The notes under the pieces are model-generated. The model saw only the letters and a program-made list of their open reading frames with translations. It was not told the origin of the DNA and did no database searches. Below, in pieces: positions 3,788 through 15,564 of a DNA stretch of 20,000 bases. Source of the DNA: an uncultured virus (IMG/VR IMGVR_UViG_3300009093_000007). Taxonomy: Duplodnaviria > Heunggongvirae > Uroviricota > Caudoviricetes. The stretch lies in the IMG/VR virus record IMGVR_UViG_3300009093_000007; one strand, written 5' to 3'. Position 1 is the first letter of the stretch, and every line of letters starts with the position of its first letter. The translations under genes were made by a program, and so were the position numbers.

Positions 3788-4254
3788 CGCCATTTGAGCT
3801 GTGGCTGGCAGGTAAAGGCCCGGAGCCTACAATCTATGCGCCGGATACCAGTATGGGCGACTATGAGGAAGACGGATTGGGTAACTTGGTACGTCGGTTT
3901 TGGCGCTGGAGACGCTACCGCCTTGACGAACCGGCCCCATCAGTCCCGAAGATCGATTGGATCACCCGGGAACGCCGTCACTGCCTAGAGCAGGCCGAAG
4001 CCGCCGAGGAGCAGCGGGCGGCGTTGGCACAGGCGGTCTACGCTCTCCCATTTCTTAGCGGCCGGCACCCGCTCCCGGATGAGTTCCGTTGCTTTATGTG
4101 CGGCGTGGAGTGCGCTACAAAACCGGACGACGGCTTAGCGGTTTGCGAAGAACATTGCCCTGATCACGATTACGTCTACGACCCCGATGAGCGACGTAAA
4201 TCGTGCCACTATTGTAACAAGCCGATACCGCTCGACTGGTACGACTGTGAGTGA
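3784..4254 (+). CDS. Cys/His-rich putative Zn-binding protein
   Basis: CFMC, CEEHCPDH and CHYC motifs, with ATGA coupling. Confidence 0.7.
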   Translation: MTPFELWLAGKGPEPTIYAPDTSMGDYEEDGLGNLVRRFWRWRRYRLDEPAPSVPKIDWITRERRHCLEQAEAAEEQRAALAQAVYALPFLSGRHPLPDEFRCFMCGVECATKPDDGLAVCEEHCPDHDYVYDPDERRKSCHYCNKPIPLDWYDCE

Positions 4255-4265
4255 AGGAGATCTAA

Positions 4266-4508
4266 ATGCGTTGCGCGCAAGTCATGGAACCTAATCCAAA
4301 TGGTACTAATGGTACTGTCGACCGCGAGGTCGACCAGACCATCCTTATCGTCAACGACAAGGAAACGGAAATCATCATCCGCGCGCTACATCTATATACC
4401 ACGTCTAACAAACGCTCAAAATTAGCACAACGTCTTCTAGCTGACACTGCTATCATACCAATGTCGCCGTCAACATATAGTCGTCTAATAGTAGACAAGA
4501 TTATATAG
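4266..4508 (+). CDS. hypothetical protein (80 aa)
   Basis: SD AAGGAG upstream. Confidence 0.6.
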   Translation: MRCAQVMEPNPNGTNGTVDREVDQTILIVNDKETEIIIRALHLYTTSNKRSKLAQRLLADTAIIPMSPSTYSRLIVDKII

Positions 4509-4545
4509 CTGTGTCCTCTAACAACTATTCACGATAGAGGAAAAA

Positions 4546-4674
4546 ATGGACGCTGCACACCCTAATATAGCTTACGACAGCAAACGTACTAAGTGGCGTA
4601 ACGATGAGCTGCGCAAGGCCGGCTACACGAAGGACGAAAATCAACGCTATGCGCACTGGAGGAAAAAGTCATGA
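4546..4674 (+). CDS. small basic hypothetical protein (42 aa, MDAAHPNIAYDSKRTKWR...)
   Basis: Not in the ORF track. SD AGAGGA, ATG at 4546, and its TGA overlaps the ATG at 4671 (ATGA). Confidence 0.55.
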   Translation: MDAAHPNIAYDSKRTKWRNDELRKAGYTKDENQRYAHWRKKS

Positions 4675-5063
4675 CGCTGCACGACAACGAGCACACGGCA
4701 ACTGCATCTCCTCTCAATTCCACAGATATCAAGTTCTATGCCATCCGACAGAAGAGTACAGGATACTTCCTCCCACACCACTTCCGGGAGTTATCGGGGG
4801 CCTACACGAAAGACAAGCCGCTCCCCAACTGCATGCCCCGTCCGTTTAAGACTGCGGCAGCTGCTAGGATAGCTCTCACGGCTTGGCTTAAAGGTAAATG
4901 GGTGCAGACAGAAGAATCTATCTATGACTCGTGCTATGATCCTCCCGAAAGAATCGAAAGAATATATATGCCGTCTCCCCCCAATCAATGGGATTTCAGT
5001 AGAAAGCCGTCTGATATGGAAGTTGTCGAGATTAGATTAGGCTCTATCCGTCCCGCCCCTTGA
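4671..5063 (+). CDS. hypothetical phage protein (130 aa)
   Basis: SD GGAGG. The FYAIRQKSTGYFLP-type N-terminus is typical of small phage proteins. Confidence 0.75.
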   Translation: MTLHDNEHTATASPLNSTDIKFYAIRQKSTGYFLPHHFRELSGAYTKDKPLPNCMPRPFKTAAAARIALTAWLKGKWVQTEESIYDSCYDPPERIERIYMPSPPNQWDFSRKPSDMEVVEIRLGSIRPAP

Positions 5064-5117
5064 CCCTAATGCCAACCCGTTCACACTCTCGTCCCACTCT
5101 CGCCGCGTCCACGCCTA

Positions 5118-5494
5118 ACTTATTCCTTATCCAGTGCCAGACAGAATACCCTACTCCATCTTCACAGCGATTGCCAATGTACTCTCTCACGTCCTGTTCT
5201 CGTCGGATTACCGCCTGTTGCGGCTTACTTATGCCTTATCGAGTGAATCGTCACGTGCGCTATCTCTTAGCGAATCGTAAGCGCGGCGGGCGGGAATAGG
5301 GCGATTTACGCCTTACTTACTTCGAACCATAGCTGAAGACTCATAACTACTGCGGTAGTAGGACAGACAGACTATAGGGGTGCTTGTCTTCTACTTAAAC
5401 ATGGTTTCCGCGCCGCACTTACGACTTATCCAGCGGACTACTGAATGCTGCTAGCAAGGCGTAAGTGGGTGGGGTCAGAGTGAGGGGCGTAAGT
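5118..5494. repeat. cluster of ~14-bp ACTTA-N3-CTTATC-like repeats (4 forward, 2 reverse)
   Basis: Forward copies at 5118-5131, 5227-5240, 5304-5317 and 5417-5430. Reverse copies at 5453-5466 and 5481-5494 are more degenerate. Confidence 0.6.
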
Positions 5495-5533
5495 TGTAAG
5501 AATTGCAAACTTGTAAAGCCTCAAAGTCACATC

Positions 5534-5563
5534 TTGACACATACCGTCGCCGCGTTGTAGGAT
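5534..5563 (+). promoter_or_regulatory. sigma70-type promoter for the AlpA gene
   Basis: TTGACA (5534-5539), 18 bp, TAGGAT (5558-5563). Confidence 0.55.
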
Positions 5564-5592
5564 TTGGATCGGAAAGAAAAGGAGACGATACG

Positions 5593-5784
5593 TTGTCTAT
5601 TTCACCGATAATCCGTCCCAACCGGGCCGCTAAATTGCTAGGCATTTCTCGCCCGACCCTATACCGCTGGGAACGCGAGGGGCGATTGGCTCCGAGAGTA
5701 ATACTAGGCCCACGTGTCAGCGGTTGGAAAGAGGAAGATCTCGCCGCCTTTATCGACGCGGGCGTTAATAGGAAAGGAAAGTAG
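5593..5784 (+). CDS. AlpA-family HTH regulator / excisionase-like protein
   Basis: IIRPNRAAKLLGISRPTLYRWEREGRLAPRVILGPRVSGWKEEDLAAFI is a classic AlpA pattern. SD AAAAGGAG precedes the TTG at 5593. Confidence 0.88.
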   Translation: MSISPIIRPNRAAKLLGISRPTLYRWEREGRLAPRVILGPRVSGWKEEDLAAFIDAGVNRKGK

Positions 5785-5894
5785 AGGTAACGTCTATGTC
5801 GCTGTCTGTGACGTAGCGTTTCGTGCAGGGTAACGTGACTAAGCAGCGTGGGAAATGTCCCGCGTTCGCTATTTTAAAAGAAAGGTGTAATTTC

Positions 5895-6179
5895 ATGGCA
5901 AAGATTCGTTTCGTATTAACGGCCGTCGTTCCGTCGCTCTTTGTGCTCGGTTTGTCGTCCACGGCGCACGCCAACTGGTATGACAACTGGTATTGCAGGG
6001 TGATCTCGGAGAACTGTCTCTCCTGTTGTATTCATAACGAGGAATCCTGTGAAGGCGCGGCGGCGAACCAGGTACAGAAGGATGCGTGCGTCGACTCTGA
6101 AAGTACATGTCTCGCGAGTTGCCCGACCGAGGGCGGTAGTCGGTGCGTGCCTGGCGTTGATCCGGGTTGCGGCGGCTAG
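5895..6179 (+). CDS. secreted cysteine-rich peptide (signal peptide plus 10 Cys)
   Basis: SD AAAGGTG before the ATG at 5895. Signal peptide MAKIRFVLTAVVPSLFVLGLSSTAHA ends in an A-x-A site. The 68-aa mature part has 10 Cys. Confidence 0.75.
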   Translation: MAKIRFVLTAVVPSLFVLGLSSTAHANWYDNWYCRVISENCLSCCIHNEESCEGAAANQVQKDACVDSESTCLASCPTEGGSRCVPGVDPGCGG

Positions 6180-6184
6180 ATATA

Positions 6185-6224
6185 GGGGTTGCTGCTGGGA
6201 CAAATCGCCCCGGCAGCAAACCCC
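6185..6224. terminator. GC-rich stem-loop after the Cys-rich peptide gene
   Basis: GGGGTTGCTGCTGGG pairs with CCCGGCAGCAAACCCC. There is no clear U-tract, so a terminator role is uncertain. Confidence 0.4.
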
Positions 6225-6319
6225 CTGGTCCGGTGGAACTAACGGCTATCGGTTGTGGTCGAGGTGTCTCACCGAAAACCGCTATAAGGAGGGTAAAGGT
6301 AAAATGATAGGCGACCGTA

Positions 6320-6733
6320 TTGGGTGTACGCCCGCCCGGCATAAGCAATTTCGACGTGCGCGTTTCGAATACCGCTCGCGGAATCGCTGGCACCGCTTAC
6401 ACTAAGGGTTCCAGCTACCACGATCGCGCATGTCCTTTTGTGGTGCTGAGGATCGGTAAAACAGGGTGGCCATCTGGCGAATTGCCCCCCCATCGCCCGG
6501 GCTATAGGGGCGTACCGTCTCTAGCGAATAAAGTGGAAGCGCTGGTGTTTTTGGCAGCGCACGAACTCCGGCATCTGTGGCAAGCGAGGGGGGTACGACG
6601 GGGTAGAGCGAAGGGATCGAGGGGCAGCGGAATGAGTGAATGGGACGCGGATACTTACGCATATGAAAAACTTGCCGAATGGAGAGCGGCGACTACCACA
6701 TCACCTCTGTCCTTACCCCATCTACTCAAGTAG
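6320..6733 (+). CDS. zincin-like (HExxH) metallopeptidase-fold protein
   Basis: LVFLAAHELRHLWQ followed by SEWDADTYA (downstream E..AD.YA). The start codon is uncertain. Confidence 0.7.
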   Translation: MGVRPPGISNFDVRVSNTARGIAGTAYTKGSSYHDRACPFVVLRIGKTGWPSGELPPHRPGYRGVPSLANKVEALVFLAAHELRHLWQARGVRRGRAKGSRGSGMSEWDADTYAYEKLAEWRAATTTSPLSLPHLLK

Positions 6734-6867
6734 TAGAATAGCAAATATTTGAAGGCAAGAGACAAATTGCGCTATCTCCGCGTGTCCGGCACAGCACAGT
6801 ATAAAATATATAACCCAGATAACGAAAGTAAAAACAAATGCGCGCTTTAGGTCCTTGTGTCTAGTGT

Positions 6868-8385
6868 CTACCACATCACCCCCGCCCTTATCCCGCTAAT
6901 ACCCAGCGTCAATTCATTATAAGCGATTGCGCTGGCGTCAACCCATTCGTCCTCGTCTTCGTCATCGCCTACAAAGTCGCACATTAGATCTATATATCTA
7001 GCGTTCCAAGGACCTCTCACTATCGCCACATTCCCGGCTTCACACTCGGCTCGGAAAGCACTCGATTTCGTGACCTTATCCGTCATGGCTACAGTCCACA
7101 TATAATCCCACCCAGCAAACGACCGCTTCCGACTCTGCACCACAGCGTCTCCGCTAGCGCCGGGTTCCCTTTCCTCTCGAATAGCACAGGCCCGGCCGTC
7201 TAGCTCCGCTAATTGATGCATGATCATATCGACGCCGAGGTCTGTCAGCCGTTCATCTTCATCACGGAACGCGTCCTCGATGTAGAATCTAGGGCTAGCT
7301 TTCGGATCGATTGTCATAGCGATTTTAACGCTACCGGTGTGGTCTTTCGCTTTCCCTGTCGCGGTGTCCCACCCTCTCACTCTCCGCACTCGATACGGCA
7401 CTTGATTGGCGTCTACGAATTGCTGGAAATACGACCGTTTGAATAATCCGCCGGCCAGTGGAATAGGATGTTGCTGTAATTGTGCGGCAGACCCGTATGG
7501 GCCTAGCTCTATCTCTAGTTCCCGCACCTTTTTCTCATCAAATACGCCTGGAAATAATAGCTCACCATCTACCGTTCGCCAGTCGCGCTTATCTGGTAGA
7601 ATAATTCGTGCCTTATCTGGATCGGTCGGGTCTATCCTTGCCGGCTCAAATCGCATAGGTAGGACTAATCGTTCCCACCCACCTTTGCTCATTAAATGTC
7701 CGCTGGGATCATCTTTATGTAGCCTCTGTCCAACGTTCAATACGACCGGGTTTAACCTTTGTCTTGTTGGCAGTGTGAAGTCCAGAAATCCATGCACCTT
7801 CTCGCGTGCCTTTTTCGATCTCGCTTCCTGCGCCTTCAACAAATCGTCTAGGATAATCCTATTAGGATGCTCGCCGGTAATGGCCCCTCCGACCGATGAC
7901 GCTATACGATATCCACCGGCCGAGTTCATGAACTTCTCTAACGCATTAGTCCCACGTGCCAATCTCACATCAAGGCTATCCCACCCGGCCGATTCCCTCG
8001 CGGATTTAATCCAAAACGATTCTCTATACCAGTCGGATTGGACTATCGCGCGTGAACAGGTATTATCCCGGATAGTATTGTCCGGTGCGTACGCCACGGA
8101 GATGTAGCGATATTGTGGCCGCTTAATCCATTCCCAGCACGGCCAGAAGACGTTAATGATCGATGACTTGCCACAGCCTGGTGGGATGTTGATATCCCAC
8201 TTGCGAGGGAGTTCTCCGGCCGATATGGACATTAATAGATCGCATAATACGTCTAGATGGCGACCCCATTCAAGTTTGCGGCCTTGTGAGTAGGGGTAGT
8301 ATTCCCAGGCACCGTGAATGAAATCGGGTAGCGAGTCCGCATACAGTGACGTGCGGAGCGAGGAGAGGGAGAGAGAGACAGGCAT
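6868..8385 (-). CDS. terL: terminase large subunit
   Basis: Walker A INIPPGCGKS, Walker B IILDD, QRLH..D motif, and RNase H-like nuclease motifs RGWDTA..DHTG and DEWVDA. Confidence 0.95.
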   Translation of the reverse strand: MPVSLSLSSLRTSLYADSLPDFIHGAWEYYPYSQGRKLEWGRHLDVLCDLLMSISAGELPRKWDINIPPGCGKSSIINVFWPCWEWIKRPQYRYISVAYAPDNTIRDNTCSRAIVQSDWYRESFWIKSARESAGWDSLDVRLARGTNALEKFMNSAGGYRIASSVGGAITGEHPNRIILDDLLKAQEARSKKAREKVHGFLDFTLPTRQRLNPVVLNVGQRLHKDDPSGHLMSKGGWERLVLPMRFEPARIDPTDPDKARIILPDKRDWRTVDGELLFPGVFDEKKVRELEIELGPYGSAAQLQQHPIPLAGGLFKRSYFQQFVDANQVPYRVRRVRGWDTATGKAKDHTGSVKIAMTIDPKASPRFYIEDAFRDEDERLTDLGVDMIMHQLAELDGRACAIREEREPGASGDAVVQSRKRSFAGWDYMWTVAMTDKVTKSSAFRAECEAGNVAIVRGPWNARYIDLMCDFVGDDEDEDEWVDASAIAYNELTLGISGIRAGVMW

Positions 8386-8731
8386 AGGATAAGTGGATCT
8401 TATATTTTTAATCTACTGCCTTGTAAGCGCACGACTTCAAGCATAGCCGCGGACAAGATATAGCAAGCGTCTTTTCTGATTTTTAGTGGTATGTCACGAT
8501 GCAATACAGTTGCGTCATGAGCATGTAGCAGAATTACAAAAGCGCTAGGTATAGTCATGTCTAACCTCAACTCAATATTTGTTATTCGCGATGCAGTAAG
8601 TAGTAGGCTGGTAAGAGAATTTGTTTTATCCAGATAGTTACTTCCTCTAGTCGTCTATTGTATTCGTCCGCACCGCGTTCGACGTAAGCTTTCTAGCGCG
8701 TCTAACACAGGATGTTTAGGCTTAATTTTAG

Positions 8732-9095
8732 CCGACATAATACACCTTTATCCTTAGAGGGAGTGTACAGATCATCTTTAGACTATAACGCGCGATCTTA
8801 TTAGACGGTCTGCGTAAATGCGCTCACTTAGTTGTAATATGACTTTCGAAGCCTGTATTATGACTGACTGATCGCTCTCTGTGTCTTCGATCCTATATCC
8901 AGCCTTGTGCAATGTAGTACGAAGTCTATCTATCGGAGCTAGCACGCTGTGCATGTAATCGATTATCTTGTCTAATTTATCCGGAAAATCTAAATTGGTG
9001 TCACTGTGCGCTAATACTGAACGTACCTCTTCGAGTTCTTCTAGTGCCGACCTGATTGGATTATCATATTCGTCCGACATAATACACCTTTATCC
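8732..9095. repeat. perfect 22-bp direct repeat CCGACATAATACACCTTTATCC
   Basis: Copies at 8732-8753 and 9074-9095. On the - strand it reads GGATAAAGGTGTATT-ATG-TCGG (SD plus start codon). Confidence 0.9.
8778..9080 (-). CDS. helical hypothetical protein (100 aa)
   Basis: SD AAAGGTG. Overlaps the 3' end of the SLOG gene. Confidence 0.7.
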   Translation of the reverse strand: MSDEYDNPIRSALEELEEVRSVLAHSDTNLDFPDKLDKIIDYMHSVLAPIDRLRTTLHKAGYRIEDTESDQSVIIQASKVILQLSERIYADRLIRSRVIV

Positions 9096-9486
9096 CTTTC
9101 CTTATCGCCCGCCTGATACAATCCTCTGTCCCGGTTCCGCCCGGGAACGCCACCCACCCCACCGGATGCGGCTCCTTATTAACCATTCTACCGTTACGAT
9201 TATTTCCAGCGTAGTGCCAGCTAGGACCGTCAATATTAATATCTATCGGCACGGGGTCGAGCGCAAAGCCGTGATCTTTTGCATATTCAGACGCGGTTGT
9301 ATCCACACCGCGGGCGGCGACATGGCGGATAGTATTGGCGTTTAACGACTTGGCAATTGATATGAACGCGCGTAATTCGTCTTCGGTCGGGCGGTAGTCA
9401 CGACCGCCTGTAATGCCTATTACGACAGGAGTTATATCAATCATACTGTCGCACACTGTCGCACACTGTCGCACACTGTCGCACAT
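9064..9486 (-). CDS. SLOG superfamily protein (DUF2493/YspA-like)
   Basis: VIGITGGRDY, ARGVDT.A, AG..RN.RMV and VAFPGGTGTEDCIRRA motifs. The start is the ATG at 9486 or 9444. Confidence 0.85.
   Translation of the reverse strand: MCDSVRQCATVCDSMIDITPVVIGITGGRDYRPTEDELRAFISIAKSLNANTIRHVAARGVDTTASEYAKDHGFALDPVPIDINIDGPSWHYAGNNRNGRMVNKEPHPVGWVAFPGGTGTEDCIRRAIRKGIKVYYVGRI
9445..9484. repeat. tandem repeat (ACTGTCGCAC)x4
   Basis: Four perfect 10-bp units read directly from the sequence. Confidence 0.95.
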
Positions 9487-9495
9487 AGTCACATT

Positions 9496-9684
9496 TCATA
9501 TCGCGTAGCAATAGTTTATATGTCCACAGTCTGGGCACGTATCCATATATTGTTCGCCCAGCGTTCGTGTAGGTAACTTAGGGTGCGAACAAATTGCTTG
9601 CCTTGCCTTTAACTCCGCTATTAATTCTCGCTCTGCGGCATGCACTTTATCCAAATCACGTCTTATCTCACTGTAGGCGCACAA
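9496..9684 (-). CDS. small coiled-coil plus Zn-ribbon protein
   Basis: CSH...CPDCG motif and SD AGGAG. Confidence 0.65.
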   Translation of the reverse strand: MCAYSEIRRDLDKVHAAERELIAELKARQAICSHPKLPTRTLGEQYMDTCPDCGHINYCYAI

Positions 9685-9722
9685 TTCGTTCTCCTATCAC
9701 CGGTCCGTGGGGGAGTGGGTTG

Positions 9723-9908
9723 TCACCTGTAATCGTCCCATGCTATGCCGCGCCGGTGACGTTCGTTATGAATCTCGCGGCGTGAGTATAAATCATAATC
9801 GTTATCCAACCGGTCTAGTGTCCATTTCGGCGCATTAGGCGGAGTGGGCTCCGGTGGCGGATCGTTTGAGAGATTACGCCTAGACGGCGACTTACGTTTA
9901 TTTGCCAT
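9723..9908 (-). CDS. hypothetical protein (61 aa)
   Basis: Starts 2 nt after the stop codon of the deaminase gene. Confidence 0.55.
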   Translation of the reverse strand: MANKRKSPSRRNLSNDPPPEPTPPNAPKWTLDRLDNDYDLYSRREIHNERHRRGIAWDDYR

Positions 9909-9909
9909 T

Positions 9910-10227
9910 TTATATCATCGCTCTTTCAATCGTCACGCCGAGTTTCTCCGCTATTCTCGCGCACGTCGCGCATGGATCGATTGGCAACAACTCACCGCAA
10001 CTCCCCACCCTAACTATTACTATTCTCGTTAGCGACCGCGGCAACCTACGCATTAACACTTCCTCGGCGTGATAGCCGCGCATAGGTAGGCGCGGAGAGT
10101 TGACAGCGATGCCGATTATACGTCCGCGATAGTCAATGCCAGCGGCGGCAACTCGATACCGACATGAGGTGACACGTAATGCCGCACGGATCAGGCGCGC
10201 GTGAAGAGTGGAAGGGTGGGATTTCAT
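9910..10227 (-). CDS. Zn-dependent cytidine/dCMP deaminase-fold protein
   Basis: RVAAAGID..G.II..AVN, HAEE and PCATC give the HxE/PCxxC signature. Confidence 0.85.
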   Translation of the reverse strand: MKSHPSTLHARLIRAALRVTSCRYRVAAAGIDYRGRIIGIAVNSPRLPMRGYHAEEVLMRRLPRSLTRIVIVRVGSCGELLPIDPCATCARIAEKLGVTIERAMI

Positions 10228-10415
10228 CGCCCTATGGTATCTTACTAGAACAGCTTATAGAGATCTTTACTATGATTTGATATGGCACATTGAATCGCTC
10301 GCACAACATGCGTATCACGCGCTTGCGCTAAGTTCTCCGCGCACTAATTGCGGAAGATAGCCATAACGTTCTATATGGTCGAAGAATTCAAGTACTGAAT
10401 CGGTAGTGGTGGCCA

Positions 10416-10685
10416 TTATGACGACTCCTTTTCCTGTATAGCAGCACCGAGCGATTGAAGCCACGGCACAACCTTACTGTGGAAACAGTCGGTACACAAA
10501 TCCACTTTATACGTTGTGACACTAGGCCCTTCCGGCCATTCATCGCCTTCACGGAATTCGATATAGCCCTCATTAATACTACAGCCGTATCTAGTGATTT
10601 CACTTTCGCAAATGTCGCACGTTTTCCATGTACGAACAACAGTGACGACTTCTTTAGTTTCTTTTTTGGTTTCTTGACGATTCAT
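10416..10685 (-). CDS. small Zn-finger phage protein
   Basis: TCDIC...DLCTDC motif and SD AAAGGAG. Confidence 0.75.
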   Translation of the reverse strand: MNRQETKKETKEVVTVVRTWKTCDICESEITRYGCSINEGYIEFREGDEWPEGPSVTTYKVDLCTDCFHSKVVPWLQSLGAAIQEKESS

Positions 10686-10703
10686 TGGTATACTCTCCTT
10701 TGC

Positions 10704-10991
10704 CTATTCCGTCCTCTTAACTTTTCCCGTCAACCCAGGTGCGTACCTTTCCCCTCTCGCTCTCCACCGCGGCAGTAACGCTATTAAACTCCCATTCCCG
10801 CCTGTGCAATCCCAGCACTCCCTATTGTCGTGTGGGAGGTATCCTATTCCCGGTGACGGCGCCGGCTCGTTAAGGTCGCGCCAGTCCCAAGTAGGGCGGT
10901 CGTGTGAGAGATAGAATAGACAGGCGATGATCATCGAGGCTATGACTAATACGAATACGGCTAAGCCTATTATTAGATCCAGTGTCTCCAC
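10704..10991 (-). CDS. membrane protein with N-terminal TM helix
   Basis: Hydrophobic residues 6-28 and SD AAAGGAG. Confidence 0.65.
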   Translation of the reverse strand: METLDLIIGLAVFVLVIASMIIACLFYLSHDRPTWDWRDLNEPAPSPGIGYLPHDNRECWDCTGGNGSLIALLPRWRARGERYAPGLTGKVKRTE

Positions 10992-10993
10992 GT

Positions 10994-11164
10994 TTATTCT
11001 CCTTTCTCTGCGGCGCTCGTCAACGTCACGACTTTTCCGCCGTCCGTACGTACTATTATTCTATCACCTATTTGAAGTCCAGCGATGTCCAGTATCCGCC
11101 GCGGGATAGAGATAACGACGGAGCCACCGACGCGGCGGAGCTTGGATGTGGTGATTTCGGTCAT
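10994..11164 (-). CDS. AbrB/MazE/SpoVT-family DNA-binding protein
   Basis: SKLRRVGGSVVISIPRRILDIAGLQIGDRIIV is the swapped-hairpin signature. ATG at 11164. Confidence 0.85.
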   Translation of the reverse strand: MTEITTSKLRRVGGSVVISIPRRILDIAGLQIGDRIIVRTDGGKVVTLTSAAEKGE

Positions 11165-11171
11165 GTGCCCG

Positions 11172-11378
11172 CTAACTGTCCCGATCAAATTCGCCTGTAG
11201 CAAGAAAGCAGTGGAGAGCGTATCGTAGCTCCTCGATACAGTCGCGATCTACAACAGTAGAGTTGCTGCCGTATAATTTCGTTATTTGTACGGCGTCGCC
11301 TGATAATCTGGTTATCAGTATATCGGTTTTACCGTTGTCTTTGATCGCTACGGTATCGGATGTTGTGTTTACGTACAC
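11172..11378 (-). CDS. hypothetical protein (68 aa)
   Basis: SD AGGAGG before the GTG start. Confidence 0.65.
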   Translation of the reverse strand: MYVNTTSDTVAIKDNGKTDILITRLSGDAVQITKLYGSNSTVVDRDCIEELRYALHCFLATGEFDRDS

Positions 11379-11404
11379 CGGTAATCCTCCTAATTTGTCG
11401 CCAG

Positions 11405-11605
11405 TTAGACGTTAGGGTCGTCTACTATAACTTGCGACAGTTTATTGCCTACTATTTTCTCCGCACGACCGAATAGGCATTCAACGATGGTGGCGTTGCC
11501 ATTATCATCTGGCATTGTGTAGACCACGGTTAAATTACCGGGATAGCTACAAACGAGGACAGGGGAGACGGAGACAGGCCGGCGTTTCCTTGTTATTTCG
11601 TCCAT
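11405..11605 (-). CDS. hypothetical protein (66 aa), probably leaderless
   Basis: The ATG lies 7 nt downstream of a TAGGCT -10 box. Confidence 0.6.
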   Translation of the reverse strand: MDEITRKRRPVSVSPVLVCSYPGNLTVVYTMPDDNGNATIVECLFGRAEKIVGNKLSQVIVDDPNV

Positions 11606-11612
11606 GGCTTGC

Positions 11613-11642
11613 AGCCTACCACATATCCCGCGGATATGTCAA
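11613..11642 (-). promoter_or_regulatory. sigma70-type leaderless promoter for the leftward operon, with an internal palindromic operator
   Basis: On the - strand: TTGACA, 18 bp, TAGGCT with an extended -10 TG. The palindrome ACATATCC-cgc-GGATATGT (11621-11639) overlaps the spacer and the -35 box. Confidence 0.7.
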
Positions 11643-11691
11643 CATATCCGTACATATCTCCCACATATCTCACATATATCTGGACATACCT
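11621..11691. repeat. phased ACATATC repeat array
   Basis: Copies start at 11621, 11632 (inverted), 11642, 11652, 11663, 11672 (ACATATA) and 11684 (ACATACC). Confidence 0.8.
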
Positions 11692-11821
11692 CTACCTGCC
11701 TAGGCCTCGCCCGATCTTGCCCGATCCTCTCGACCTCCCCGGGCCGTCCCCGTGCTACCCTTGGGACAAAATACCTCGACCGCCCCAAAATGCCCCATAC
11801 CGCTATCGTCACTGAGACCAA

Positions 11822-14023
11822 ATGACCCAACCGGCTAGGCCTATACTAGATGATGTCAGCGGCCGTCAAGCTGGCGGCAGTGGGGCTGTCTCGGGCAACG
11901 GTGGCGGCGATCCGGCCGGCCCGGCAGCCGGCCTCCACACCCCTCTCGGCCCCTCTGGTCTGCCCGGCCCCGACTCTGCCCTAGTTCGTCTCCTCTCTTC
12001 GGCCCTGGTCGAGCGCCAGCGCTTCCGGGCGTACGGCCCCGGCCCCAACCTCTACGGTGGACGGCGCGACCTCTATGGCGCGGTGGGTTATCCTAGACAG
12101 TTAACGAGTGACGATTACCGCGACTTTTACGAACGTGGCGACGTGGCGGCGAGACTAGTCGAATTCTATCCGCAATCAACATGGCTTCCGGCTGTCGCGG
12201 TGAATGAGATAGACGACCCGGATACACAGACGGAATTCGAGCTTATATGGATAGACTTTGATCGTCGATTAAACGTGATAGCTGATATTTTCATGCGCGC
12301 CGATATCCTAGCGTGCACGTATCGCTATTCCGTCATCGTAATCGGCGCACCCGGTGACCTATCAACCGAGTTGCCGCGCGGCAATGGTCGGCCGGATGCT
12401 ATCAAATATCTAACCGTACTAGGCGAGGACAGGGCGGCTGTTACTAGGTTAGTCGGCCAAGACGACACCGATGAGAATGGTCTATACCCCGGTGCGACTG
12501 GCTATATAGACCCGGTATCAAGTCCGCGCTTTGGCCTACCGTTAACCTATCGCTGTAAATTCGGCGTTGCCATTAACTATTTCACTAGCGATGGATCAGT
12601 TAACTCATCAACCGGTTCTCTGATCGAGCGCGATGTCCACTGGTCGCGCGTCTGGCATATGGCTAACGGCACGCTAGACAATCGCGTCTATGGCCAGTCT
12701 ATGTATCGGCGCGTGGCTAATGCGTTAATAGACTACCAAAAACTACGTGCGGCCTACGCGGAGTCGGCATGGAGGACGGCGAGCCCCAAGATTCATGCCA
12801 ATATGGACCCGACGATGATGATGTTGCCGGGCGAGGAAGAGCAGTTAAGGGAAGCTATCGATAGGCTACGCCACGATATGGAAGATGTGGTACGTACCCG
12901 TGGTGTGGATATTAAGATGTTGTCATCGCCGGTGGGGTCTATGGAGGCTAACGTCCATACCCTATTACGTGTTATATCGGCGGCGTGGGGTATTCCGGCG
13001 CGCGTGATGACTGGATCGGAAGAGGCTAAAGCTGCCGGGACGCAAGATGACAGACACACGAATGACAGGCAGACGGAGCGGTGGGGATATTACGCTACGC
13101 CACAGCTAGGCGGGTTTATTGGTCGTCTAGCTGATTACAATTACGTGCCGCGGCCGAAGGATTTGACGATTGTGTGGCCGGAGATTGAGGAACATACGGA
13201 ATCTGAAAAAGCGACGATTGCCGGTCAGATTGCGTTGGCTAACTCCAATCAAACTAAAGCCGGCGACACGCCGATACGTACGTCGGCGGAATTGAGAGAC
13301 GAATTATGGGGATTGAGAGATCCTATTATTATGCCAGATACCGTGCCAGATCCCAGCCAGAACGATCCTAATCCGAGCGATCCAGCAGCCGGCAATCCGA
13401 CTGCCGATTTAACCCGTTCTGCTAGTCTGTCTTCCGATAGCCGCGTGATCATCATTGGCGGTCCACGGCGTGGGAAATCCACTCTCGCCCGCGAACTTCG
13501 TGCGGCATCGGCGATTCCAACCTATTGCGGCGATCCGGCCAACCTAGTCAAGGAACCGGAGGACGGTGTCACGTATCTCCCCGCGAATCTATCGTGGTCG
13601 GAATCGTCGGCGTATATCGCTGAGAATTGGTTGACTCAGCCCGGCCCGTGGTGCTGTGAAGGGGTGGCAATGGCCCGGGCGGTTAGAAAGTTAGTCATGG
13701 CGGGGAAGACTGCGGCGCTAGACGGTGTGGATATTGTCGTGTTGACGGAGCCGCACGAGGGGGCGACGGAGACGACAGGGCAAGCGATTATGGCTAAGGG
13801 GGTAATGACAGTGTGGGCGGAAGTGGCTGACTTATTCCCACAAGCCAGAGTCGTATCAACGGTGAGTAATCCTGCTAGATATCCTATAATTGCCGTTGCA
13901 GCTAATCGTAAGCTTGATAGTAATCTCGACACGTGGCCAGTGACGATGCCAGCCGGGCGCCGTGCGATAGCGTCGAAAAAGAATCACAAATCTAGCCCAC
14001 GGTTTAGTTTTAAGGTGTGGTAA
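11822..14023 (+). CDS. phage portal protein (DUF1073-type) fused to a C-terminal P-loop kinase-like domain
   Basis: YERGDVAARLVE, SPRFGLPLTY, VHWSRV and ISAAWGIPARVMTGSE motifs, positioned before the protease and capsid genes. A Pro/Asp linker precedes RVIIIGGPRRGKSTLA (Walker A at 13457-13480). Confidence 0.88.
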   Translation: MTQPARPILDDVSGRQAGGSGAVSGNGGGDPAGPAAGLHTPLGPSGLPGPDSALVRLLSSALVERQRFRAYGPGPNLYGGRRDLYGAVGYPRQLTSDDYRDFYERGDVAARLVEFYPQSTWLPAVAVNEIDDPDTQTEFELIWIDFDRRLNVIADIFMRADILACTYRYSVIVIGAPGDLSTELPRGNGRPDAIKYLTVLGEDRAAVTRLVGQDDTDENGLYPGATGYIDPVSSPRFGLPLTYRCKFGVAINYFTSDGSVNSSTGSLIERDVHWSRVWHMANGTLDNRVYGQSMYRRVANALIDYQKLRAAYAESAWRTASPKIHANMDPTMMMLPGEEEQLREAIDRLRHDMEDVVRTRGVDIKMLSSPVGSMEANVHTLLRVISAAWGIPARVMTGSEEAKAAGTQDDRHTNDRQTERWGYYATPQLGGFIGRLADYNYVPRPKDLTIVWPEIEEHTESEKATIAGQIALANSNQTKAGDTPIRTSAELRDELWGLRDPIIMPDTVPDPSQNDPNPSDPAAGNPTADLTRSASLSSDSRVIIIGGPRRGKSTLARELRAASAIPTYCGDPANLVKEPEDGVTYLPANLSWSESSAYIAENWLTQPGPWCCEGVAMARAVRKLVMAGKTAALDGVDIVVLTEPHEGATETTGQAIMAKGVMTVWAEVADLFPQARVVSTVSNPARYPIIAVAANRKLDSNLDTWPVTMPAGRRAIASKKNHKSSPRFSFKVW

Positions 14024-14163
14024 AACTAATGCGAGCGACCCATCAACAGAACGCCAACGGCACTCCTCCGGGTCGCCCGCGCGCTCCGTCAACGGTGTCG
14101 GCCGGGGAGAACCGGCCGCGTCGACGTCTCCGAGCTGGAATGAGTAGACCATAGATAGAAGCC

Positions 14164-15564
14164 ATGCACAAGAGGGCAAGTAAGGCGGTAGTTGCGAGAG
14201 GGTCTGGGGGCTTATCCCATCCCGTCGCCATTCCCTCGTCTATTCGCTCGGCTACCCGGTCGCTGTCCTTCCGCTTATCCTCGGCCAAATGCCGCGAAGA
14301 GATCTATCTAGGCGAATCTCATCTAGTCGTTCCCGTAATCCCGCTAGTCGGCAATATCGTATTCTGGCCTACTGGTGCCGAGGGTTATGAATGGGTGCCG
14401 GATTACGTTCTCGCGGCGGCTCCGGTCGGGTGGAATAATCGCCCGGTTGTACCAATCCACCCGGATATATCGCTGCCGACCGCTAACACCCCGGAATTCT
14501 TGACAGCCTATTGTTTTGGTCAACTATTCAATACTCATTACGGTGCCGATGGCAAGCTGCATACCGAAGCGTGGCTGAATCGTACCCGTGCGGCGCAGGT
14601 GGGGGCGATGGCAACCGATGTACTAGCGAAGTGTGAATCCGGCGAAATGGTTGAGGTTAGTGTAGGCGCACAGATTCAATTTGAAAAGCGCGCCGGATCG
14701 TTCAACGGACAATCGTACGTCGGCGTTTGGCGGGGATTGGTGCCTGATCATTTAGCTGTCGGATTGAACGGTTCACCCGGCGCATGTTCGATTGAAGACG
14801 GCTGCGGTGGGCCGCGGACGGCAGTGACGAAGAGGGCGGCAGCAGAGACGGCGACGAAAGCCGCTAAATCCAAATCTAAATCCAAATACGTATTCCTTGA
14901 ATCCAATCGTCCACGATCAATAGGAGCTACCGCTATGCCATCTCTCCGTGAATCTATCACCGGCTTATTAACCGCTCTTCGTCTATCTGGCACTCCCGCC
15001 GAGGACGCCGAGGAAGCGGCTGAGCTAATCGCCTATGGATCAATGCGAGATCTAGTCGATAATGCTATCGCCAAACTCCAAGCGGCGAAGGTAGATATAT
15101 TGTCGTTAATCTCAGCTGAGACGGAATCGCCGACCGAAAGCGCGGAAGCGGAATCAGCAGAGGAGACGATAGAGCTAGCGCAGTATTCGCGGATTAGAAC
15201 GCTACTCTATTCCGCTGGTGATGAAATCTATGCTGCGTCGAGTGTGGTGTACGATCTCTACCGCGAGCACATGGCCGATAAGATAGAGGAAGAAGCGGCT
15301 AATGACGGCGCGCTACCGGTTGTGATCGTTGGCGATACGCGGTATTACGCCGATGGTAATGGTGGCAACGGACGGTCGGCGGCTGGCGCGCGGCATAGCA
15401 AGGAGGATATGAAGATGATTCAAAACACTCATGATACGACTGTTAAACTCGGCGCGACGTGTGCGACCGAGGAGACGAAAGCGGCAGCTAAGGCGACAAT
15501 CGCGACCACGGCGGCAGCGACTGTTAAACCGTGCGGGTGTCACAATACAGCGTCATTGTTTTAA
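14164..15564 (+). CDS. prohead (capsid maturation) protease, DUF2213-like, with a C-terminal scaffold-like region
   Basis: WNNRPVVPIHP, EVSVG and PDHLAV..GACSIEDGCG motifs, an acidic helical C-terminal half, and synteny with portal and capsid genes. Confidence 0.85.
   Translation: MHKRASKAVVARGSGGLSHPVAIPSSIRSATRSLSFRLSSAKCREEIYLGESHLVVPVIPLVGNIVFWPTGAEGYEWVPDYVLAAAPVGWNNRPVVPIHPDISLPTANTPEFLTAYCFGQLFNTHYGADGKLHTEAWLNRTRAAQVGAMATDVLAKCESGEMVEVSVGAQIQFEKRAGSFNGQSYVGVWRGLVPDHLAVGLNGSPGACSIEDGCGGPRTAVTKRAAAETATKAAKSKSKSKYVFLESNRPRSIGATAMPSLRESITGLLTALRLSGTPAEDAEEAAELIAYGSMRDLVDNAIAKLQAAKVDILSLISAETESPTESAEAESAEETIELAQYSRIRTLLYSAGDEIYAASSVVYDLYREHMADKIEEEAANDGALPVVIVGDTRYYADGNGGNGRSAAGARHSKEDMKMIQNTHDTTVKLGATCATEETKAAAKATIATTAAATVKPCGCHNTASLF

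Follow-up and report, generated by a model that had tools for sequence, protein, structure and literature searches.

A phage portal protein with a C-terminal P-loop kinase-fold domain, a candidate enzyme cargo of the phage head

Fusions of enzymatic domains to the MuF or portal proteins of phages have been described by Iyer et al. in 2017 (PMC5512222) and 2022 (PMC9503650), who, in the available passages of both papers, report 2H, Nudix, PBECR and InPase domains in this position and read them as packaged in the head. An earlier note on the DNA studied here had named this precedent, including the 2H phosphoesterase, and the same passages bear it out. Enzymes fused to MuF or portal in phage heads are known; a P-loop kinase-fold module there is undescribed in the literature searched. 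Our search returned no description of a portal-P-loop fusion, though one could be among the architectures in the supplement to Iyer et al. 2017. Here we analyze such a fusion in a window (the whole stretch of DNA under analysis) of 20,000 nucleotides from a soil phage.

Architecture and neighbourhood of the portal fusion

The fusion gene was compared with that of a complete relative, G001 (92% identical, 89 ORFs). The relevant features of the window are as follows:

6868..8385, minus strand: large terminase, divergent from the portal gene (phrog_38, E 1.5e-56; Terminase_6C)
11822..14023, plus strand: complete gene of the portal-P-loop fusion, 733 aa and a stop codon, a single open frame (G001 shares the architecture at 92% identity)
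11822..11983, plus strand: aa 1-54, a Gly/Pro-rich extension at the N-terminus with predicted disorder (pLDDT <50 in the full-length model)
11984..13318, plus strand: portal domain proper, aa ~55-499, PF06381 / phrog_146 (HMM matches; last portal helix 488-496)
13319..13435, plus strand: disordered Pro/Asp/Asn-rich linker, aa 500-538 (pLDDT <50 over 500-535)
13436..13855, plus strand: P-loop kinase-fold domain, aa 539-678, ~140 aa (AF2 pLDDT 96.7, pTM 0.91)
13457..13483, plus strand: Walker A motif at aa 546-554, GGPRRGKST (all of 101 aligned sequences have G551 and K552)
13520..13534, plus strand: TYCGD, aa 567-571, closing strand 2 (>=90% of 101 family members have D571)
13649..13690, plus strand: WCCEG strand 3 (aa 610-614; E613-G614 Walker-B-like) and the next helix with R619 and R622 (RAVRK), >=90% conserved as judged from columns E75, G76, R81 and R84 of alignment A1
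13781..13783, plus strand: Q654, a nearly invariant Gln at the helix start after a short lid loop (Q116 of alignment A1)
13856..14020, plus strand: basic, predicted-disordered C-terminal tail, aa 679-733 (pLDDT <50 over 681-733)
14164..15564, plus strand: next gene, encoding a 466-aa phrog_760 protein, DUF2213-like, a probable prohead protease/scaffold (phrog_760, E 6e-10)

The uninterrupted 733-aa frame from which the earlier note started translates without a stop from 11822 to 14023 on the plus strand. Its portal part matches PF06381 Phage_portal_3 (DUF1073) over aa 230-471 with 39.5 bits, above the gathering cut-off of 33.8, and phrog_146 'portal protein' over aa 80-527 (E 1.2e-41); with the last helix at 488-496, the portal ends at about aa 500, as had been proposed. 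All of the motifs quoted previously (linker, Walker A, TYCGD, WCCEG) are found in the translation, and the motif check placed PDTVPDPSQNDPNPSDP at aa 505-521, within the linker, and IIIGGPRRGKST at aa 543-554, spanning the Walker A. The compact C-terminal domain also stands, with its size corrected from the ~150 aa first given to a folded part of ~140 aa (539-678). In the full-length monomer model the mean pLDDT is 65.

The 55-aa basic tail that follows the P-loop domain does not appear in the earlier note. Its final ~30 aa are the same in the alignment with G001, and the majority of the 14 listed DUF1073 fusions have similar basic tails, with an alternating hydrophobic/basic motif at the end.

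The portal gene heads the morphogenesis operon. Its stop lies 140 nt from the next ORF, and the genes 3' of it encode the phrog_760/protease-like protein, a phrog_766 decoration protein, a DUF6260/phrog_771 capsid protein and a phrog_477 adaptor; the product of 14164..15564 also gave weak matches to DUF2213 (E 0.0027, below the cut-off) and to the protease phrog_12864 (E 0.0059). No MuF was detected by Pfam or PHROG among the 12 window proteins and the 89 ORFs of G001, in agreement with the claim that no separate MuF gene lies between portal and protease. Nor does an immunity-like gene adjoin the fusion, the next gene being the one for the 466-aa protease/scaffold-like protein.

None of the metagenome contigs compared has a stop or frameshift in the linker. 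The contig from run X1, possibly the source of the window DNA, spans 12900-14200 with 0 differences. Contigs of a relative from three other rhizosphere runs carry replacements of 85 letters by 79 and of 74 by 71, as well as an insertion of 3 letters, and keep the frame throughout; the 79 letters stand in place of the linker. The dN/dS against G001 is 0.074 for the P-loop domain, 0.052 for the portal and 0.26 for the linker, which is only 50% identical and whose indels are all in-frame. By these sequence comparisons, the fused state is under purifying selection. Chance read-through is excluded because dN/dS is low and the linker indels are in-frame only.

Fold and conserved residues of the P-loop domain

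The model of the C-terminal domain (pLDDT 96.7) has a P-loop fold, with strands at 541-546, at 567-572 (ending in D571) and at 610-613, as had been placed from the sequence. A Foldseek search against the PDB, the check suggested at the outset, returned kinases as the leading matches, with gluconokinase the best (E 8.9e-4). The best structural matches in VIA were all P-loop kinases at Z ~8-10, a range that is middling: gluconate kinase 1knq (Z 9.8), AK6 3iij (9.7), 1aky (9.1) and 4gp6 (8.8). Nearly all of the best 50 VIA rows (Z 7.2-9.8, where values below 8 can reflect a common arrangement) were P-loop kinases or transferases of the kinase fold. The HMM matches to PF06381 and phrog_146, the AF2 model and these fold matches together uphold the description of the protein as a portal with a C-terminal P-loop domain of kinase-type layout.

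At the sequence level the domain falls below every gathering cut-off of the named Pfam kinase-like families (AAA_18, AAA_28, AAA_33, SKI), with AAA_28 at 15.2 bits against 27 and AAA_18 at 13.3 against 29.4, both on the Walker A only, and PHROG gave no above-threshold match. Searches of PDB sequences, whether started from the domain or from a profile of the family, gave chance or Walker-A-only matches, which were set aside. The BFVD fold search found nothing at E<=1e-3 (best 1.1e-3), and in the ESM Atlas the domain matched solely viral clusters, 'hypothetical' or tagged AAA_18.

The P-loop kinase fold class is reportedly characterized, by Leipe et al. in 2003, by a Walker A, a Walker-B-type acid with an Asp after strand 2, and LID arginines after strand 4. 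The Walker A pattern GxxxxGK[ST] is present as GGPRRGKST at aa 546-554, and the acidic Walker-B-type residue E613 and the Asp after strand 2, D571, are each modelled at the end of a strand. No canonical LID arginine is conserved in the 101-sequence alignment of the loop 642-651, which precedes the helix 652-671; conserved instead are Q654 and, elsewhere, R619/R622 after strand 3. The Walker A Gly-Lys is invariant among the 101 family members aligned, and the acidic and Arg residues are at least 90% conserved. The residues K552/S553, E613, D571, R619/R622 and Q654 make up a complete set for nucleotide binding and catalysis, similar to the sets of small-molecule, nucleotide and polynucleotide kinases. 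We therefore read the domain as a putatively active phosphotransferase that depends on ATP, or at the least as an NTPase; because no Arg is conserved in the LID loop, a kinase reaction is not certain.

The missing LID arginine, together with a basic tail that could bind DNA without catalysis, would suit a non-catalytic appendage, such as a structural or DNA-binding plug or a decoy, and the domain might also be an artefact of a lost stop codon or an assembly error. We consider this very improbable in view of the conservation of the Walker A, acidic and Arg residues over the 101 sequences, the dN/dS of 0.074, the intact frame in independent contigs and the occurrence of the same fusion in at least 13 representative clusters.

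The P-loop family and its fusion partners

In a set of 1.84 billion proteins the family has 530 representatives (clusters at 50% identity) that match at E<=1e-3; most are standalone phage genes of 125-190 aa. The family has no name in Pfam, PHROGs or the source records examined. Its members come from phages and from MAG contigs assigned to Polyangiaceae, Nocardioides, Planctomycetes and Oligoflexus. A homologous-protein search with the P-loop domain gave 15 matches, none informatively named, and a related-locus search with the single domain found two viral loci and no genome loci. As DNA patterns, the Walker A is unspecific (5 family members among 120 stretches) and PWxxEGxxxxRAxRK is usable for finding members. 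When 101 members were scanned against PHROG, any single family ('ATPase', 'thymidylate kinase', 'kinase') was matched by at most 7.

Fusions were found with five kinds of head or packaging protein. At least 13 fusions to PF06381 portals occur among the 150 representatives listed, and the domain is also fused to a PF04860 portal (P0008), a PF06074 Mu portal (P0138), a MuF protein (L173), the scaffolding protein phrog_206 (P0076, P0091, P0123) and TerL (P0035, P0037, P0115, L162), where both N- and C-terminal positions occur. The three portal families concerned (PF06381, PF04860 and PF06074) are mutually unrelated. A tree of 221 P-loop domains requires several separate origins of the fusions; the four TerL fusions lie apart on it, with 4 label changes, at least 2 of them forced by well-supported branches. 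P-loop domains fused to DUF1073 portals fall to ~47% identity and retain the catalytic residues, and this clade is old.

The C-terminal slot of the portal was compared in 24 close homologues, as the earlier note had proposed, and is indeed swapped among different enzymes: 7 carry the P-loop domain, 2 MuF, 2 a 2H/Acb1-like domain, 1 ParB_N and 11 nothing, with 2 unknown extensions, one of which overlaps the 2H set through a ParB-like end. The P-loop domain is one among several interchangeable enzymatic modules in the C-terminal slot of this portal lineage.

Among the standalone members, the upstream neighbour (n=72) is TerL in 9 cases and the portal in 8, and the downstream neighbour (n=71) is TerL in 6, the portal in 2, MuF-like in 4 and a protease in 3. 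This census rests on crude ORF calling, and the association with the head module depends on a minority of loci because most neighbours (47 of 72 upstream, 54 of 71 downstream) have no PHROG match. In the relatives L147, L155 and L190 the gene order is portal, P-loop, MuF; a complex prediction for the L190 portal and its standalone P-loop protein scored 0.01, which is evidence in neither direction. There are also split relatives, such as MW202476.1, in which the portal and P-loop ORFs overlap in different frames. Programmed frameshifting was considered for these; most cases are accounted for by start/stop overlaps of the kind usual in translational coupling.

Some of these data would suit a metabolic or DNA-modifying kinase that is co-expressed late and whose fusions are tolerated accidents of gene adjacency; candidates are a nucleoside/NMP, nicotinamide-riboside-type or polynucleotide 5'-kinase, or an enzyme like the 5-hmdU DNA kinases. 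Weak PHROG matches to thymidylate kinase or 'kinase' (5 of 101 each) point in this direction, as do the affinities to AAA_18/AAA_28, which are sub-threshold except in the member P0129, which reaches the AAA_28 cut-off with 28.9 bits. DHH, MazG-like and radical-SAM genes are among some neighbours, and the ORFs of G001 include those for a thymidylate-synthase homologue and for a nucleoside deoxyribosyltransferase. In P0029 and P0043 the domain is followed by a HAD-like DxDGT module, with a weak 'polynucleotide kinase' PHROG match (E 7.7e-6), which we take to be the domain order of T4 polynucleotide kinase-phosphatase (Pnkp). The 5-hmdU DNA kinases are themselves P-loop kinases, according to the available part of PMC8989533. 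On the other hand, no aGPT-Pplase-type partner is named among the 89 ORFs of G001 (in a PHROG scan that left most of them without a match), the old DUF1073 fusion clade retains its catalytic residues, and twelve copies locked on the lumen side of a portal would be poorly placed for bulk metabolism. We regard such a kinase as an improbable explanation of the fusion.

Proposed role and comparison with known systems

Portals, the rings by which DNA passes into the capsid, are dodecamers, and, as far as is known, the C-terminus faces the capsid interior in every solved portal. The DUF1073-type portal continues C-terminally into the ~39-aa flexible linker, the 140-aa P-loop NTPase domain and the basic tail. 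In the proposed arrangement, because portals are dodecamers, twelve enzyme copies would be tethered in the capsid lumen round the inward opening of the DNA channel. The kinase-like domain probably travels inside the virus particle. A filled head, to our knowledge, contains no ATP, and the enzyme would likely act in one of two settings: the procapsid, while packaging is pending or under way, or the next host cell, once the enzyme has been released. For the domain we infer the lumen location, the copy number, catalytic activity, encapsidation and release.

The known effector class is characterized by an enzyme appended after a portal or MuF domain, at a position where homologues carry other domains, and the interchangeability of the C-terminal modules leads us to place the P-loop fusion among the portal/MuF-fused, head-packaged enzymes. 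Our main reading, to which we give a probability of about 0.5, is that the domain is a phosphotransferase cargo of the capsid lumen and a new module in that class. As long as it remains covalently attached to the portal, it could not be injected. If the domain is an injected kinase, perhaps cleaved off and with an anti-defence role as the earlier note supposed, phosphorylation by a nucleotide-kinase-type fold would be a new chemistry for first-strike phage effectors.

The main alternative is that the domain is an accessory NTPase for packaging or assembly, which would work at the portal vertex while still in the producing cell, rather than as an injected effector, and might regulate procapsid nucleation, terminase docking, scaffold release or the local nucleotide supply of the motor. 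Adenylate kinases are tethered to other motors, and both adenylate kinases and the assembly ATPase AK6/Fap7 are among the best fold matches. The TerL fusions, at either terminus and apart on the tree, fit a packaging-stage role better than cargo, the large terminase being no virion protein and leaving the particle after packaging. In six cases a standalone gene immediately precedes TerL, in the usual small-terminase slot, and in seven it immediately follows TerL; the scaffold fusions put the domain in procapsids at high copy. However, established portal structures have the C-terminus of the portal on one side of the shell and TerL on the other, so that one geometry could not suit both types of fusion. 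The family is missing from most phages, including 11 of the 24 close portal homologues, and is therefore not a core part of the motor; the 2H, MuF and ParB_N modules of the same slot are not motor parts either. We hold this explanation possible, though on the unlikely side; if true, it would add a component to a motor thought well inventoried.

It is conceivable, if quite unlikely, that the phosphotransferase is an unrecognised component of the portal vertex, stationed on portal, terminase, MuF or scaffold and acting on DNA or on packaging and head proteins while the genome is threaded, rather than passive injected cargo. Such an enzyme would, for example, modify or mark encapsidated DNA only, or phosphorylate vertex proteins sensed by host Avs-type sensors. 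The repeated fusion to five head and packaging proteins offers a testable handle on an ATP-using enzyme at or inside the capsid.

Comparison with known P-loop kinases (1knq; AK6/hCINAP/Fap7, 3iij and 4cvn; 1aky; shikimate kinase; the kinase domain of Clostridium Pnkp, 4gp6) shows the same five-stranded parallel sheet, Walker A, Asp after strand 2 and acid after strand 3, with Z 8-10 over 113-130 residues. The window domain differs in its identity of only 12-17%, its very short lid loop without a conserved Arg and its RxxR after strand 3 and GQ motif, which the family keeps, and it has no close structure in the PDB or BFVD (best Foldseek E 8.9e-4 and 1.1e-3). T4 Pnkp shares the P-loop kinase fold, whereas the window protein has neither a phosphatase module nor a sequence-level match to Pnk families.

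SPP1 gp7 and Mu F are portal-associated internal head proteins encoded just 3' of the portal, a position matched by the P-loop genes of L147, L155 and L190; their fold is unrelated to the P-loop, and a MuF was detected neither in the window phage nor in G001. The MuF polymorphic toxins, as presented in the available part of Jamet et al. 2017 (PMC5576092), have an N-terminal MuF domain and a cognate immunity gene downstream; the portal fusion of the window has neither.

A further likeness is to the portal/MuF-fused effectors (2H/Acb1-like, Nudix, PBECR RNase, InPase and ARTs; PMC5512222, PMC9503650 and PMC5576092). The window module differs from them in being a P-loop kinase-fold NTPase, which is not among the domains described in the available passages of these papers, in belonging to a family that is also found on TerL and a scaffolding protein, and in its extra conserved basic tail. 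It shares with them, as far as those passages describe the class, the position of an enzyme after the portal or MuF domain. The gene likewise lies in a terminase-portal module, a MuF-P-loop fusion exists in L173, and the DUF1073 homologues bear 2H/Acb1-like, MuF and ParB_N domains in the very slot that the P-loop domain occupies.

Fold and integrity of the C-terminal domain

The portal gene of the window (11822-14023, plus strand) is one uninterrupted open frame of 733 aa, as the earlier note had described, and all the motifs that it quoted were found in place. The N-terminal two thirds of the protein correspond to PF06381 Phage_portal_3 (DUF1073; 39.5 bits against a Pfam cut-off of 33.8), and aa 80-527 match phrog_146 'portal protein' of PHROGs (E 1.2e-41), which confirms the portal assignment. 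The window matches G001, a complete virus record of 69.2 kb with terminal repeats; its portal shares this architecture at 92% identity. The claim that a separate MuF gene is missing also holds, as neither the window nor G001 gave a MuF match. AlphaFold modelling of the whole protein (mean pLDDT 65, from an alignment of 19 rows) gave the following division.

Parts of the 733-aa protein in the full-length model
aa 1-54: disordered N-terminus
Portal body, with its last helix at aa 488-496
aa 500-535: disordered linker
aa 540-678: confident alpha/beta domain (block pLDDT mostly 77-92)
aa 681-733: disordered tail

Modelled alone with a 101-sequence alignment, the P-loop domain gave a five-stranded alpha/beta core (pLDDT 96.7, pTM 0.91). 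Among 101 family members the Walker A Gly-Lys (G551, K552) is invariant, and conservation extends to D571 closing strand 2, W603, E613-G614 closing strand 3, R619, A620, L/V621 and R622 on the helix after strand 3, and Q654 at the first position of the helix that follows a short loop. D571 and E613-G614 are reminiscent of the catalytic Asp and the 'EG' of uridine-kinase or nicotinamide-riboside-kinase type enzymes. The Foldseek comparison with the PDB that the note had suggested returned weak matches (best E 8.9e-4), all of them P-loop kinases (gluconokinase, GMP kinase, shikimate kinase, thymidylate kinase and Fap7). In an exhaustive structural comparison with 48,161 chains, the scores were Z 9.8 for gluconate kinase and for an isopentenyltransferase, Z 9.7 for human AK6/hCINAP, Z 8.8 for a polynucleotide kinase and Z 8.2-9.1 for adenylate kinases; no match was outstanding, and identities were 9-19%. 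Sequence searches against Pfam and PDB sequences recognised Walker A alone, and BFVD held nothing close. Because the structural matches are almost all to kinases or kinase-fold transferases, none of them outstanding, and sequence methods reach no further than Walker A, the domain falls in the P-loop kinase fold class and in no named family. One defining feature of the class is missing, in that the family conserves no arginine in its lid loop. The kinase-like character proposed at the outset stands for the fold, the Walker A, D571 and the WCCEG strand and falls short at the lid; kinase chemistry is likely but not assured.

Comparison with G001 gave dN/dS values of 0.052 for the portal, 0.074 for the P-loop domain, 0.26 for the linker (50% identity, in-frame indels) and 0.24 for the tail, and we consider it very improbable that the domain is a non-catalytic appendage or an artefact. 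A contig from sequencing run X1, which may be the source, spans 12900-14200 with 0 differences, and contigs of a relative from three other runs bridge the region with frame-keeping changes throughout; none of these contigs shows the stop or frameshift in the linker that the note had named as a refutation. Synonymous divergence is 0.72 in the P-loop domain, 1.5 in the linker and 0.30 in the portal body (13322-14020 vs 11984-13318); since that of the P-loop part exceeds that of the portal, it hints at a mosaic, with a different recombination history for the C-terminal module.

The tail (13856-14020, aa 679-733) is K/R-rich and predicted to be disordered, and its last ~30 residues (…MPAGRRAIASKKNHKSSPRFSFKVW) are identical in G001. 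Most DUF1073-P-loop fusions carry a similar basic tail with an alternating hydrophobic/basic end motif; neither standalone members nor fusions to other partners have such a tail. DNA binding, docking and a targeting signal are candidate roles.

The domain family and its fusion partners

With the P-loop domain as query, phmmer run exhaustively against 1.84 billion representatives identified 530 proteins at E<=1e-3, of which 153 reach 1e-10 and 23 reach 1e-30. Standalone proteins of 104-195 aa are the majority among the 150 matches listed, and none of 15 relatives in a named collection has an informative name or a Pfam domain. The window and its relatives occur in rhizosphere metagenomes. In GTDB genomes, 7 of 18 pattern matches were family members, on MAG contigs of Polyangiaceae, Nocardioides, Tepidisphaeraceae, Planctomycetales, Phycisphaerales and Oligoflexus. 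The single match in the phage database, MW202476.1, encodes the domain as a separate gene (5920-6426), whose ORF overlaps the 3' end of the portal by about 60-115 nt in another frame; its label, 'ADP-ribosylation factor-binding protein', looks like a mis-transfer.

Two other architectures were observed. P0057 (a 482-aa metagenome protein) has a LAGLIDADG/Hom_end intein-like insert adjoining Walker A, which precedes the sequence after the Walker A Lys (…HN/SSFARALR…) and resembles terminase inteins (phrog_36964, phrog_15); no N-extein with GGPxxGK was seen in the predicted protein. P0029 and P0043 (278-282 aa) carry, after the P-loop domain, a HAD-like DFDGT (DxDGT) module with weak Hydrolase_6/Hydrolase matches and a match to phrog_415 'polynucleotide kinase' (E 7.7e-6); this kinase-then-phosphatase order is that of T4 Pnkp.

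A census of the 150 listed representatives (P-numbers) and of fetched loci (L-numbers) revealed fusions to several head and packaging proteins.

Fusions of the P-loop domain
PF06381 portals, domain at the C-terminus: at least 13 representatives among the matches listed
PF04860 portal: P0008, with a second example, L199, by C-terminal sequence
PF06074 Mu-type portal: P0138
MuF, domain at the C-terminus: L173 (PF04233 E 3.8e-15; phrog_324)
Head scaffolding protein phrog_206, domain at the N-terminus: P0076, P0091, P0123
Large terminase (TerL), domain at the C-terminus: P0037, P0115, L162
Large terminase, domain at the N-terminus: P0035

On a FastTree of 221 domain sequences (local support only), DUF1073 fusions require 2 label changes, scaffold fusions 2, HK97-type portal fusions 1 and TerL fusions 4, of which well-supported branches force at least 2. 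By these counts, the fusions have several separate origins.

With the portal part only (aa 61-500) as query, 24 proteins passed a threshold of E<=1e-10. The P-loop domain is present on 7 of them, including that of the window, and 11 are plain portals of 433-575 aa. P-loop, MuF, 2H and ParB_N modules all occur among these homologues, in agreement with the predicted swapping of the C-terminal slot.

Other C-terminal extensions of homologous portals
P0170, P0171: MuF at aa ~686-792
P0176: 2H phosphoesterase (PF13563 E 4.2e-12; Acb1 model 26.6 bits against a cut-off of 27)
P0180 (944 aa): 2H module with a weaker PF13563 match, and a ParB-like end
P0182: ParB_N and weak GNAT matches
P0172 (1102 aa): long extension without assignment; a unit with GGPGSGNFGH(A/S)GR… occurs three times, and the end (DGHHRW) is ParB-like
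P0186 (877 aa): long C-terminal extension without assignment

In sequence, P0172 and P0180 look like portals with polyvalent-protein-style cargo.

Genomic surroundings

The portal-fusion gene is the first of a rightward head operon.

Features around the portal fusion
Directly 3': probable protease-scaffold, 466 aa (phrog_760/DUF2213-like)
Downstream: head-decoration homologue
Downstream: capsid protein (DUF6260/phrog_771)
Downstream: head-tail adaptor
6868-8385, minus strand: large terminase, diverging from the portal
9064-9492, minus strand: SLOG/YAcAr-like protein (phrog_289 'GTP-binding domain')
9910-10227, minus strand: cytidine/dCMP-deaminase-like ORF (weak match)

Between large terminase and portal, small minus-strand ORFs take up about 3.4 kb, and no small terminase was identified in 6868-11821. 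A 137-aa ORF with a TTG start and an HExxH-type motif (AAHELRHLW; 6320-6733, plus strand) may encode a small zincin-like peptidase or else be a spurious frame. G001 looks like a siphovirus; it encodes a tape-measure protein of 2007 aa and has replication genes of its own. Just past the window's right end, its structural gene block encodes a 1343-aa protein (3892-7923 of the fetched stretch L221) with glycosyltransferase matches (phrog_2170, E 2.9e-23, aa 1052-1326; phrog_854, aa 138-188), possibly a second enzyme associated with the virion.

Viral DNA matched a pattern for PWxxEGxxxxRAxRK in 93 stretches. Together with other fetched loci, these gave 76 non-identical loci of at least 3 kb that contain a family member. 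On either side of it, the closest ORF on the same strand (crude ORF picking) was scanned against PHROGs. Upstream neighbours (n=72) were 9 TerL, 8 portal, 2 DHH phosphoesterase, one each of MazG-like, endolysin, tail fibre and RNase-E-like, 2 PHROGs without assigned function and 47 without a match. Downstream (n=71) we found 6 TerL, 2 portal, 4 MuF or head morphogenesis, 3 protease or phrog_760, 1 ATPase, 1 radical SAM and 54 without a match. The order DUF1073 portal, P-loop, MuF was found in L147, L155 and L190. Most neighbours have no match, and TerL or portal adjoins about one third of standalone loci vs ~8% for a random position (a rough estimate for a ~50-gene phage), an adjacency well above random expectation. 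A purely metabolic or DNA-modifying kinase, with an incidental location, is in our view improbable. A role in the producing cell, at the vertex where DNA is packaged, is somewhat less doubtful, and stays viable because TerL, no virion protein, is fused to the domain in four places apart on the tree and because the small-terminase slot, just upstream of TerL, holds a standalone gene in six cases; we nevertheless regard it as unlikely.

Possible role inside the head

Our preferred reading, to which we give a probability of about 50%, is that the domain belongs to the class of head-packaged enzymes, a placement by analogy that is based on the scaffold and MuF fusions and on the polymorphic slot. 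Those two fusion partners belong to the procapsid interior and have very different copy numbers, which favours cargo over a stoichiometric structural part. In solved portals, a ring of twelve subunits, the C-terminal crown points toward the capsid interior; twelve P-loop domains on flexible linkers would therefore surround the channel mouth on the lumen side, each with its basic tail. The 13 DUF1073-fused representatives listed share about 47-68% identity with the catalytic set kept, and the lineage is, judged by its sequences, old; since an old lineage retains this set, the enzyme's job must tolerate confinement inside the shell. As a filled head holds no ATP, it would act in the procapsid or while DNA is being packaged, or else in the next cell once delivered there. 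To be released from the portal, it would have to be cleaved off in the linker, and a protease-like gene adjoins the portal.

In the literature covered by our search, which did not extend to the external supplementary lists of the 2017 paper, we found no description of this P-loop family, its size, or its portal, MuF, scaffold or terminase fusions. The effector-fusion idea of the earlier note is accordingly published for other domains and, in those sources, not for this one. The principle of an enzyme fused to a portal as presumed head cargo is already in print: passages of Iyer et al. infer head-packaged enzymes where 2H, Nudix, PBECR, InPase and ART domains are joined to MuF or portal (PMC5512222, PMC9503650), and the account of MuF toxins by Jamet et al. 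is in a similar vein (PMC5576092).
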